UHGV virus genome: UHGV-0077717
From: a virus
DNA: 30,805 bases
Reading direction: 5' to 3' (one strand)
Positions 23,201 to 26,200 of the stretch are shown piece after piece. Position numbers: made by a program. Each line of letters starts with the position of its first letter. Position 1 is the stretch's first letter.

Positions 23201-26200
23201 TCGAGTCAGTACCGATGTAGCCGATGAACACGCTCGTTATATAAGCGAGATTGCTACTTAGTCCGGCAAAGTCGAGAAGGTCACGAATGAACCAGGCGAT
23301 AATGGCGCACATCGTTGCGTCGATTACTGTTTTTGTAAACGCACCGCCATTATATCTGCCGCGAAGGTACGCCATTGCAAACGCAAGGATTGCCCCGATG
23401 CCTTGTTCCTTTGCCGCGAGAATGGCGGCTAACAGGTCATGTTTTTCTGGCATCTTCATGTCTTACCCCCAATAAGGGGATTTGCTCTATTTAATTAGGA
23501 ATAAGGTCGATTACTGATAGAACAAATCCAGGCTACTGTGTTTAGTAATCAGATTTGTTCGTGACCGATATGCACGGGCAAAACGGCAGGAGGTTGTTAG
23601 CGCGACCTCCTGCCACCCGCTTTCACGAAGATCATGTGTAGAAGGCCGCAGCGTAACTATCACTGATGAATTCAGGATAGCCAGTGGCTACGGCTCAGTT
23701 TGGGTTGTGGCGGTCGGTGCTGAACTCCGACTTAATGACGATAGGCGTGTACCGACGCCTCGTTTTACTTCCTCCGCTTTCACGGCTTCACCCTAGACCA
23801 GCTTTACGAAATCCTCGTAAACCTAACCGCGGCAGATATGACCGGCACGGTGTGCCATATCACGGACCGGCGGGTGTCTCGTTCACCTGATTAACGCATC
23901 AGCCTGCGTATTCACCACAACGATAAGAGCACTGCGCGGCACCTTTCACCAATTCCGCGAGGTCTGCGGGTTCAATGCTCTTACCTGTTGTGCAAATAAA
24001 AAAGCCACCGTTGCAACTTAAGAGTCACTAACGGCAGCTTACCTTCTAATTATGGCTAAATGGATAATTGCATGTCAAGGCTTTTAACAGCAATATGCTT
24101 AACTTTCTCAACACGTTTACGCATTTTGAAAGCATTTTGCATCGGCTGGTATAAAACAAATAATGACGCTTTCAGGATGTCGTCAATTTCGTTTCTACAG
24201 GTTGACAGTGAAGGTTTTCTCCATCCCTCGCCACCACGTCCACACATCTTGCGTGGCTTTGCAGTCGCGTGATAGTAGGATGCAATTGCTCGCTTAGATG
24301 AACCATGAGCGTAGTAGCTGAGGAGGATGCCAAAGGCTTTCTTGTCAATGTACATGACGGAATCGACGACCTGAGAAATCAACATTCCATCATCATCATT
24401 ACACATTGGCCTTGTCATAACTCTTCCCGGCTCTACGCTCTCCATGAACTTAGCTATTACGCTGCTCATGCGCTTTTCCAGACGACCTGAATAAACCCAT
24501 GCCCCCCACAGTTCAAGCCAGCCATTCAGCCAATCGTGCTGTTCTTTGGTGAGGTTTAGTTCTCTTATGCTCATCGCCTTCCCTTTTTGCCTGGCGTTAC
24601 CATCAGGACGCCGTTAACTATTACGTGACGCTCACCTTTGCTGTCTCGGTTGTACTTGAGCACTGTTCCTCTTGCGCAGGAAAGCATCCTCGCCACTTCG
24701 GTCTGATTGCCTCGTGTCTGAATAAGAAGCTCTGGTATCGTTTGAATTGTGGCGTTCATGCGTTCTCCAGTTCGGTGATTTTTATTCCAAGCCGTCCGCC
24801 TGGTACTTTCACACCACGAATTACGCGAATGTCATCGAATTGCTCGTCGTCTTCCGCAAATCCGGCGTGGATAAGGGAATCGAGTAAACCTTTCAGGATG
24901 TTATCGAGGTCGCGGCGGCGGGAGTCTGGAACGTCTGCGATGACTTTGATGCGGAGTCGTGATTTGGTGAAAATGTCTAACTTGAGTTGGCGGATGATTT
25001 GCTGAACGTCTTTTCGGTATTTCTGGCCTTTATCGCTGATGTAGTATTGGCTTCCCCGTCTTCGCCAGTAGGTGTTCACCGACGGCGGGTATGGAAGCAC
25101 AAACTGATATTCGTTCATGGCTTAATCTTCCCCTCCTTCAGCAGTATCGCCTGCGTCCTGATCACGCCTTCCAGGTGGGAAAGTCTGGCGTCTTTGTTGT
25201 CGAGGTTATGGGTGCGTCGGTCGATTTCATCGTGACACGCGCTACAAGCCCATGCGCCGATCAGGTCGTCAGGTTTCATTCCCGTTCCGCAAATTCCAGC
25301 CATCCGGTAATGTGCCAGAACTGTAGTTTCATGGTTGCCATTGCATACGCCGTAAATACGTACCTGGCATTCTCTGCCGCGTGCTTCTTTGCGTAGGTTA
25401 GCCATTAAGCAGCCTCCCCGGTTACTTTCAGCATTCCGTTATCGAGCAGCTTTCTGGTCAGCCACTGTTGACCACGCCCGGTGATTTTTGTGGTGAACGA
25501 TATCTGTATTCCGTGATTTGTGTTGACCGCTGTTTCTTTCACTGTGAAATAGCCGCGATCCATATATTCCTGCATTGGCACATTGCGCCGGGAACCTGAA
25601 GCAATAAGGATTTTGTGATCGCGCATCCACGCAAACAGTTTGTTCGGACCAATACCGACAACCTTTGCAAAGTTTCCAATCAAAATTCCGCTGGCTTCGC
25701 CAACTCGATCGGCAAACTCAACTTTAGGTGCGGCAATTGCGAGCTGGTTTTCCAGTTGCATTTTCTGCTCAGCAAGGTCAGCAGCAAGGCGCAACGCTTC
25801 CGGTAGCGTTTTGGGGATATTAACCGCAGCTTCTTCAAGCTCTCGCCAGCGGTCAACAAGGCGAGCGGTGAACTCTGGCGACAATTGGGCGACGACAATA
25901 ATGCTGTCTCGCTTTCCTTGTTCGCCCTCGAAGACGTAGAAATAACGCTTCCCGGTAATAACACCTAAATCATTGATTATGTTAGTGTGCTGCAATGCAG
26001 GAGGCTTGATAACGCCACGTTTCACCAATCTATCTATGGATACTTTTACATTGCTATGGCGGCTTTCTACCAACTCAGCGATTTCAATGCTTGTCATTTT
26101 GATGGCGTTGCCATTTATTAACTCATTCATCGTCTTCTTCCTCGTACATTGAGCTATTCGGATCGCTCATCAGCTCTGCGCAGCAATCGGAGCACACGTG

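Follow-up and report, generated by a model that had tools for sequence, protein, structure and literature searches.

The leader between the Q antiterminator gene and the lysis genes of lambdoid phages is among the best-studied regulatory regions, and Shiga toxin (Stx) phages place toxin genes and Hfq-binding small RNAs (sRNAs) there. The sRNA STnc100, which is the Hfq-binding EcOnc27/sRNA103 (PMC7873438), is found as 11 copies in EDL933, shows uninduced expression and was verified by Northern analysis (PMC5331693); it was located 75 nt downstream of stx2 (PMC12370729). At least 8 Sakai prophages carry such sRNAs in the segment that separates the late promoter from the lysis genes, for a reason that was called unclear (PMC7873438). 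STnc100 and PasD are structurally homologous, and both are abundant Hfq-bound sRNAs with seed regions and targets detected by RIL-seq (a method that ligates and sequences interacting RNAs) (bioRxiv 10.64898/2026.05.13.724894). We analyzed the same slot in the virus genome UHGV-0077717 (30,805 nt, referred to here as the window), which overall is a P22-like podovirus prophage. The phage genes at the locus all lie on the minus strand: Q (24574-24056), the holin/antiholin gene S (23459-23136), R (23152-22676) and Rz (22679-22221). The intergenic space from Q to S is 596 bases long (23460-24055) and is fully covered by the interval under study. A preliminary description had called this slot empty. 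It is indeed free of transfer RNA (tRNA) genes; however, positions 23992-23704 hold a conserved structured RNA cassette. We judge it probable that this interval serves a CUS-3-like, P22-type prophage as the leader of its late operon and that it is composed of three exchangeable modules on the minus strand: a late promoter, tandem Q-binding-like octamers and terminator tR' (module 1, 24078-23998); the cassette, consisting of a long hairpin P0 stacked on a 218-nt tRNA-shaped RNA (module 2, 23992-23704); and a lambda-type S leader with GC hairpin, sdi stem and dual start (module 3, 23709-23460). For this three-module leader as a whole, we favor on balance a reading in which the cassette is a stable scaffold with a variable sRNA payload, transcribed from the late promoter pR' under the control of Q. 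New here is the unannotated tRNA-shaped RNA, which belongs to the STnc100/PasD kind and whose subtype we term type A.

The cassette begins with the boundary motif CACAAC (23992-23987), which together with P0 occupies 23992-23922. P0 folds into a 13-bp stem with arms GGTAAGAGCATTG (23985-23973) and CAGTGCTCTTATC (23934-23922) and a variable 38-nt tip; its arms are common to other phages and enclose different interiors in lambda, ep3, KlebP_265 and PDP46. P0 directly abuts the closing helix of the RNA body, P1; its 3' arm ends one base before P1. The body (23921-23704) is closed by P1, a helix of 7-9 bp (23921-23913 with 23712-23704), which is followed by an AAU linker. Three bases after the 5' strand of P1 stands a D-like hairpin (23909-23894) with loop GGCUGA. 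The variable interior (23893-23732, ~160 nt) lies at the position of the tRNA anticodon arm, and a T-like hairpin (23731-23713) with the 9-nt loop AGUUCAGCA abuts the 3' strand of P1. The D-like and T-like loops are complementary (GCUGA/UCAGC). Within the variable interior, short inverted repeats had been described around 23830-23870; the stretch 23840-23875 folded no better than shuffled sequences (z -0.24), and a neighboring hairpin at 23800-23824 folded better than shuffles (z -2.6).

The first 100 bp of the cassette recurred, 92-100% identical, in intergenic gaps that lack annotation in unrelated phages, including Skatevirus SeSz-2, Jilinvirus ep3, a Klebsiella siphovirus in which it adjoins three tRNA genes, PDP46, and phages of Erwinia, Aeromonas and Hafnia. 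About 165 viral contigs were harvested by pattern, and a covariance model, R1, was built from a seed of 28 diverse phage copies with the window left out. R1 matched the window over its full model length (1-114) with 55 bits (E 4.8e-12), and this was the sole match in 30.8 kb. The family alignment showed conserved arms and variable interiors. Interior length ranged from 30 to 160 nt and was hypervariable, and the elements measured from 88 to more than 200 nt. Standard pairs filled 95.0% of cells in 82 distinct sequences, versus 25-54% when the partners were slid by one to three columns; the alignments were model-fitted, which favors structure, and this slid-partner control and an independent fishing for D-loop variants reduce that bias but do not remove it. 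Changes on both sides occurred in 18 of the 24 pairs, and none of 500 shuffles reached any of the five measures. All five pairs of the T-like stem covaried. The inner seven pairs of P1 were almost always paired, with at least five pair types at several positions; the two outermost pairs were unpaired in 28-46% of copies. A P0 hairpin of at least 10 bp abutted the body in 52% of 133 distinct copies, versus 7.5% of shuffles, and its arms showed many covarying sequences.

Because the first harvest had fixed the D-loop, variants of this loop were fished for in a dedicated search. All three GGCCGA variants that had a recognizable T-like hairpin carried the compensating CGGC. Among lineages with GACTGA, 6 of 12 carried CAGT (background about 10%). 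The variants GGATGA and GGCTTA were uncompensated. At the loop-loop pair 19-236 we counted 50 GC, 11 AU and 10 GU, and at pair 21-234 72 UA, 4 CG and 2 UG. Judged from these alignments, the predicted cassette fold is conserved and covarying, including the loop-loop helix. In the literature, no paper on the type-A subtype, on the pairing between its loops or on its tRNA-like shape was found.

We compared this architecture with that of STnc100 (Rfam RF02076, gathering cut-off 47 bits). Model positions 31-147 of the Rfam consensus comprise a closing helix, an AAU linker, a D-like hairpin and an abutting T-like hairpin; this core is flanked by a 30-nt leader and by its own Rho-independent terminator about 30 nt after the core. 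The window element has all four core parts. STnc100/PasD and type A share a scaffold in which a 7-bp closing helix ending in GUG/CAC is followed by AAU, a D-like hairpin, a variable middle and an abutting 5-bp T-like hairpin, and the STnc100/PasD sRNAs occupy the same slot, from the late promoter to the lysis genes, as the window RNA. The two types differ in the T-like loop, which has 9 nt and pairs with the D-like loop in type A, whereas it is the 5-nt AGGCA in STnc100. Relative to STnc100, type A adds the 5' hairpin P0, and the window interior extends to ~160 nt. STnc100 also has its own promoter and terminator, whereas the window copy has no recognizable promoter or adjacent terminator. R1 matched 3 of 10 genuine STnc100 genes over their bodies (E 5e-6 to 5e-5). 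A second form, type B (GTTGCGGTG...CCGGG-AGGCA-CCCGG-CACCGCAAC), consists of lower-scoring copies in tandem with type A that matched the Rfam STnc100 model below threshold. The window copy itself gave no score against RF02076, so its link to STnc100 rests on the shared architecture and the R1 cross-matches. On this basis the predicted cassette RNA is a type-A relative of the Hfq-binding sRNAs STnc100/EcOnc27 and PasD, of a subtype absent from Rfam. A search of window positions 22000-25500 against Rfam 15 (E≤1) returned nothing relevant in the interval and no STnc100 match.

On the opposite strand, within the RNA interior, a hairpin followed by CGTTTTACTT was observed at 23743-23760 (plus strand). 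The antisense "dyad" sRNAs AgvB and AsxR are known opposite STnc100-type genes. Rfam found neither AgvB nor AsxR here, and the count of such opposite-strand hairpin sites equaled the chance expectation.

In shape the type-A body resembles a tRNA, with an acceptor-like stem, D- and T-like arms and a contact between their loops; however, these loops pair by Watson-Crick kissing, unlike those of tRNA. ARAGORN called no tRNA in the window; across nine related loci, its only calls were the true tRNAs of Sf6 and KlebP_265. When compact copies were searched with Rfam, only real tRNAs and weak noise were returned, and the tRNA model missed these elements. We rejected the identification of the element as a tRNA gene or relic because the detectors were negative, there is no anticodon arm, and the T-like loop lacks GTTC. 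An encoded CCA end was likewise rejected: only 12 of 116 copies had N-CCA at its canonical offset, which is no enrichment, and the window has A-CCC-A. An integron attC-like site was excluded by inspection only, as the CACAAC/GTTGTG ends do not fit RYYYAAC/GTTRRRY.

In another explanation, the effect would come from the scaffold, which would mimic a tRNA and bind some conserved factor of host or phage (for example RNase P, an enzyme of tRNA modification or repair, a defense nuclease directed at tRNAs, or the ribosome), and the interior would be a tolerated expansion. The AAU linker, the GUG/CAC core of P1 and the loop sequences are near-invariant across very different phages, and the geometry is tRNA-like, in that the stem has 7 bp and a T-like stem of 5 bp directly adjoins the 3' strand. 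The element also occupies a slot of tRNA genes in strict co-orientation with them, and its interior is free to vary between 30 and 160 nt. These points are countered by the blindness of ARAGORN and of the Rfam tRNA model to the element, the missing GTTC consensus of the T-loop and the rarity of a canonical N-CCA; moreover, PasD and STnc100 behave as Hfq-bound base-pairing sRNAs. We regard a tRNA mimic as rather unlikely.

The surroundings of the family copies gave further information. A tRNA gene lay within 500 nt in 20 of 138 distinct copies, co-oriented in all 20, and within 2 kb 28 of 29 were co-oriented; phage tRNA genes are co-oriented with, and often adjacent to, type-A elements. The tRNA genes of phage late leaders (tRNA-Asn/Thr in Sf6, tRNA-Asn/Leu in L, ileZ-argN-argO in Stx phages) lie in the same slot as the cassette, as do tRNA genes of phage 21, and in Sf6 tRNA-Asn and tRNA-Thr occupy exactly the cassette's position. 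Tandem copies were present at 15 of 150 loci. Terminator-like hairpins stood before P0 in 17% of copies and after the body in 30%, versus 1% and 5% of shuffles, respectively. In virulent phages, the element and tRNAs formed a plus-strand island of their own inside minus-strand structural operons, and tandem arrays were also found.

These results bear on the possibility that the cassette is a cis-acting leader device, in which P0 and the fold process, stabilize or insulate the 5' end of the late mRNA, for example by defining the lysis message through cleavage with RNase III or RNase P, or as an extra barrier that silences the late genes without Q. Its 5' leader position directly behind tR', the conserved stable GC hairpin downstream and the terminator-like hairpins on both sides are consistent with such a role, and the long perfect stem of P0 is plausible as an RNase III substrate. 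However, plus-strand islands with tRNAs in virulent phages and tandem arrays fit a gene better than a leader device, and the related STnc100 sRNAs have genes that stand alone and end in terminators of their own. We therefore consider a cis-acting device improbable.

Other RNA-like matches lay near type-A elements. In several viral contigs, sub-threshold matches to the Rfam model tmRNA_permuted (~26 bits) were located 100-400 nt from type-A elements (L028 958-1012, L037 1003-1110, L008 2010-2117, L062 324-430 and L084 1232-1337). In L062 the match stands downstream of the element, and in the other four loci it stands upstream; these matches may represent another tRNA-like module in the same arrays. 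In L019, an RprA-like match (2944-3046; 46.9 bits, below the 70-bit cut-off) was found 300 nt downstream of a type-A element.

Module 1 carries the elements from which the cassette would be expressed. The Q gene (24574-24056, stop codon TAG at 24058-24056) encodes a 172-aa antiterminator of the phage-21 type, L/Sf6/CUS-3 subtype, that matched Pfam PF06530. The preliminary description had assigned it to the 82/QuuD-like type, an assignment at odds with a phmmer search of the PDB, where chains of phage 21 Q (Q21) were the best and sole matches (6jnx_P, E 8.5e-91; 6p18_P, E 2e-90; residues 1-162), and with its L-type octamers. Residues 1-102 were nearly identical to Q21 and the C-terminal third was diverged; at the DNA level, the gene was 98% identical to Sf6 gene 59 and to CUS-3 Q. 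A previous study (PMC8022706), together with the annotators of Sf6, HK75 and L, also classes Q of the L subtype with phage 21.

A late promoter pR' (24078-24049), for which promoter prediction had been suggested, overlaps the last codons of Q. It consists of TTGACA (24078-24073), an 18-nt spacer and CATAAT (24054-24049), matches 11 of 12 positions and was the sole sigma-70-like site predicted in 23400-24150; the HK75 and Sf6 records annotate the same 30 bp as pR'. The spacer contains the tandem octamers AATTATCC/ATTTAGCC (24069-24054), a putative Q-binding element (QBE) of the L subtype that is identical to the QBE proposed for phage L (PMC8022706). The second octamer contains the Q stop codon TAG. 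In agreement with the preliminary description, which had placed a terminator-like hairpin 18 nt after the Q stop, the intrinsic terminator tR' (24040-23998) begins 16-18 nt after it. Its hairpin (24040-24002) had a folding energy of -20.2 kcal/mol (z -5.65), which none of 200 shuffles equaled, and is followed by a U6 run to 23998; the homologous site is the annotated tR' of HK75 and Sf6. Transcription from pR' should start near 24040, and therefore the terminated pR' leader would be only about 40-45 nt.

The same arrangement, with a promoter over the 3' end of Q, tandem 8-bp repeats in the spacer and a short leader to an intrinsic terminator, is found in phage 21 and in L/Sf6/ST64T, and the 63 bp after the Q stop are ~98% identical between Sf6 and the window. 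Lambda Q, its qut site and its 194-nt 6S leader are unrelated to this 21-type set. The octamers differ between phage 21 (ATTGAGCA/AATGAGCA) and the window, and the C-terminal third of Q is also unlike that of phage 21. Residues about 103-172 (24268-24056) are diverged from Q21 and 10 residues longer, and the promoter octamers (24069-24054) differ as well; Q, in its C-terminal part, seems to have changed in step with its DNA site, as remarked for phage L (PMC8022706). In phage 21, contact with the QBE is made by the part of Q that corresponds to the diverged C-terminal part of L-subtype Q (PMC8022706). In HK629, a 704-bp insertion (L004 797-1500, corresponding to window 24049/24042) falls precisely into the gap from the -10 hexamer of the 21-type pR' to where the leader and tR' begin, parting promoter from terminator. 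It carries a terminator and an HNH endonuclease gene and looks like a homing-endonuclease cassette.

The edges of the cassette coincide with changes in sequence identity. Identity of the Sf6 type ends at 23993, just past the terminator tail, and lambda identity begins at 23709; CACAAC stands at both edges (23992-23987 and 23709-23704). Lambda shares 24003-23972, i.e., the terminator tail and the next 20 nt with CACAAC and the 5' arm of P0. Directly behind its tR', lambda has CACAAC, the P0 arms and a closing helix GTTGTGCTG/CAGCACAAC, as in the window, and a body without recognizable D- and T-like modules. Two tRNA genes stand behind tR' in Sf6 and L, whereas the window phage has the RNA cassette there. 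Sf6 joins the lambda-type leader at a tRNA 3' end (...ACTGAGCCG), where the window has the 3' strand of P1. This pattern fits an exchange of cassettes by homologous recombination at conserved flanks. The HK75 version of the cassette (L002 1636-1765) has a canonical tRNA-like T-loop GGTTCGATTCCGG and a D-arm-like GCTCAATGGCGAGC; it received no ARAGORN call, and it may be intermediate between tRNA and scaffold forms.

Such junctions could also be left by a decayed tRNA gene or a recombination scar, in which case the cassette would be functionless boundary sequence, which is in essence the empty slot of the preliminary description. Its edges do coincide with the mosaic junctions and the repeated CACAAC, the CUS-3 annotators called the flanks boundary sequences, and the HK75 version has a true tRNA-like T-loop (GGTTCGATTCC). 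However, four helices and the pseudoknot show compensatory change in more than 80 distinct copies from unrelated phages, and modules are 92-100% identical across Klebsiella, Salmonella, Erwinia and Aeromonas phages; neutral relics keep no such structure. A scar is largely refuted by these data and is highly improbable.

In the mechanism that we propose, pR' would fire constitutively, and RNA polymerase would make a leader of ~40 nt and stop at tR'. Q, when present, would load onto the spacer's tandem octamers, after which the polymerase would read through terminators. The cassette would be transcribed from pR' only after Q antitermination, and would reach useful levels only with tR' suppressed by Q, because a gap of ~6 nt without a promoter-like site separates the T-run of tR' from CACAAC (16 nt to P0). 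Its RNA would fold co-transcriptionally and would either remain as a stable species or be released by cleavage of the long late transcript. The conserved scaffold would supply signals for folding, stability and processing, and the hypervariable interior would do the work, as a payload for base pairing or as a decoy, like that of PasD/STnc100. We favor a scaffold with a payload because a conserved scaffold here surrounds a hypervariable interior and because its relatives act as base-pairing sRNAs with Hfq.

Several results weigh against this interpretation. The window copy did not score against the Rfam STnc100 model at E≤1; and the lambda and HK75 versions are too diverged for R1, which gave no match on the former and matched the latter only at E 0.01. 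The scan of 23400-24150 showed no promoter-like site between tR' and P0. No canonical terminator was found close behind the cassette, where the GC hairpin lies 90 nt downstream and has its U-run in an internal loop. The near-invariant loops and linker could make the scaffold itself the functional part. Complementarity of the interior to the phage's own RNAs was not beyond chance, and no target was found among them: the longest antisense match was 12 nt, within the shuffled range, and the predicted duplex with the S start had -34.0 kcal/mol, compared with -33.7 ± 3.8 for shuffles. Antisense action on the phage itself was rejected, as both the matches and the S-start duplex were at the shuffled level.

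The third module (23709-23460) is the lambda-type leader of the lysis genes. As had been proposed, the downstream part is lambda-derived, with 98.3% identity over 23709-23136, up to where S ends; lambda and the window agree at 98% of positions in S and in the 250 bp that precede it. In the ~170 nt upstream of S, the window, lambda, Sf6 and CUS-3 do not differ, and the CUS-3 annotators labelled this leader boundary sequence bsq3. S matched Pfam PF05106. The perfect 10-bp GC stem-loop reported at 23585-23614 (GGCAGGAGGT/ACCTCCTGCC) was confirmed and forms the core of a larger GC hairpin (23620-23574), whose outer stem encloses GUUUUG. With the outer stem, this hairpin had -28.2 kcal/mol (z -4.1), and its weak U-run is partly paired, being folded into an internal loop that the outer stem closes. 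In this stem, G>T / C>A in CUS-3 form a compensatory pair (GGCATGAGG/CCTCATGCC), and Sf6 is a one-sided intermediate; the substitutions therefore suggest that the structure of the hairpin is under selection in the lambda-type leader. The hairpin may act as a terminator, a processing site or a stabilizer.

The sdi stem of lambda sequesters the Shine-Dalgarno sequence and sets the holin/antiholin ratio (S107/S105). A stem of this type at the S start, also part of the preliminary description, is present in the window: the sdi-type stem and the dual start of S span 23481-23451, with UCCCCU/GGGGGU at 23481-23465 and Met1-Lys2-Met3. Both the stem CCCCTTATTGGGGG (23479-23466) and ATG-AAG-ATG (23459-23451) are 100% identical to lambda. 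The short stem alone folded no better than shuffles (z -1.0).

We also considered that the interval encodes small proteins, namely a 68-aa open reading frame (ORF) at 23684-23890 (plus strand) and a 50-aa ORF at 23511-23663 (minus strand). Phage Huey auto-annotates two hypothetical coding sequences, and the 50-aa ORF, which spans the GC hairpin in the lambda-type leader, matched phrog_22751 (unknown function) with E 2.6e-29. Neither ORF matched Pfam, and the 68-aa ORF had no PHROG match. The PHROG match of the 50-aa ORF may only mirror repeated auto-annotation of the conserved lambda leader, and this ORF is probably an annotation artefact of conserved non-coding sequence. In the cassette family, the open-frame fraction was 0.94, versus 0.95 in shuffles, and body lengths showed no multiple-of-three bias. 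A coding cassette was rejected because these values were at the shuffled level and conservation followed base pairs, not codons. The remnant of a gene 3' end was also rejected, since the frame ...CSYRCGEYAG* across P0 has no start codon and the stretch is the 3' arm of a covarying hairpin elsewhere. Small proteins are a very improbable explanation of the interval, and stretches of this kind, now left blank or labelled "hypothetical protein", can be corrected in annotation.

The preliminary description had expected a mosaic leader that passes from Q-cognate qut/promoter sequences to a lambda lysis leader. This proved accurate: promoter and terminator sequences cognate to Q are combined with a lambda-type lysis leader, with junctions mapped at 23993 and 23709. 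It had also held that colinearity of the whole interval with a single known phage would speak against its interpretation, and CUS-3 was found to be colinear with all 596 bases at 98.7% identity, over the entire Q-to-S stretch. The alignments indicate that the mosaic arrangement is already on record through CUS-3 and is ordinary as such. The mosaic and its locatable junctions are what remains of the original interpretation; the assigned Q type and the empty slot were not borne out. A toxin-free P22-like prophage instead has a conserved RNA of predicted tRNA shape at the slot used by Stx phages.

A broader possibility, which we put forward tentatively and as a single proposal that is more doubtful than probable, is that type A, STnc100, PasD and the structure behind lambda tR' form one large, undescribed superfamily of natural tRNA scaffolds with kissing loops and fast-evolving payloads. 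The payloads would be regulatory seeds, sponges or anti-defense decoys; the frame would borrow host pathways of tRNA processing and stability, as engineered tRNA scaffolds do; and cassettes, together with real tRNA genes, would be swapped between phages by recombination at the CACAAC/P0 flanks. If an ordinary, toxin-free P22-like prophage has such a conserved RNA at the slot, STnc100/EcOnc27, PasD, the tRNA genes of the slot and lambda's unexplained hairpin behind tR' would fall into one structural family.

The leader itself is widespread. Phage Huey is colinear with the interval at 98.5% identity, and prophages covered at least 80% of the interval in 117 of 5,426 complete E. coli genomes. The full leader was also present, with 99.2% identity, in two plasmid-sized E. 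coli records of ~39.9 kb from hospital wastewater (NZ_CP146561.1 and NZ_CP146567.1), both probably the circular genomes of P22-like phages that assembly rendered as separate replicons.

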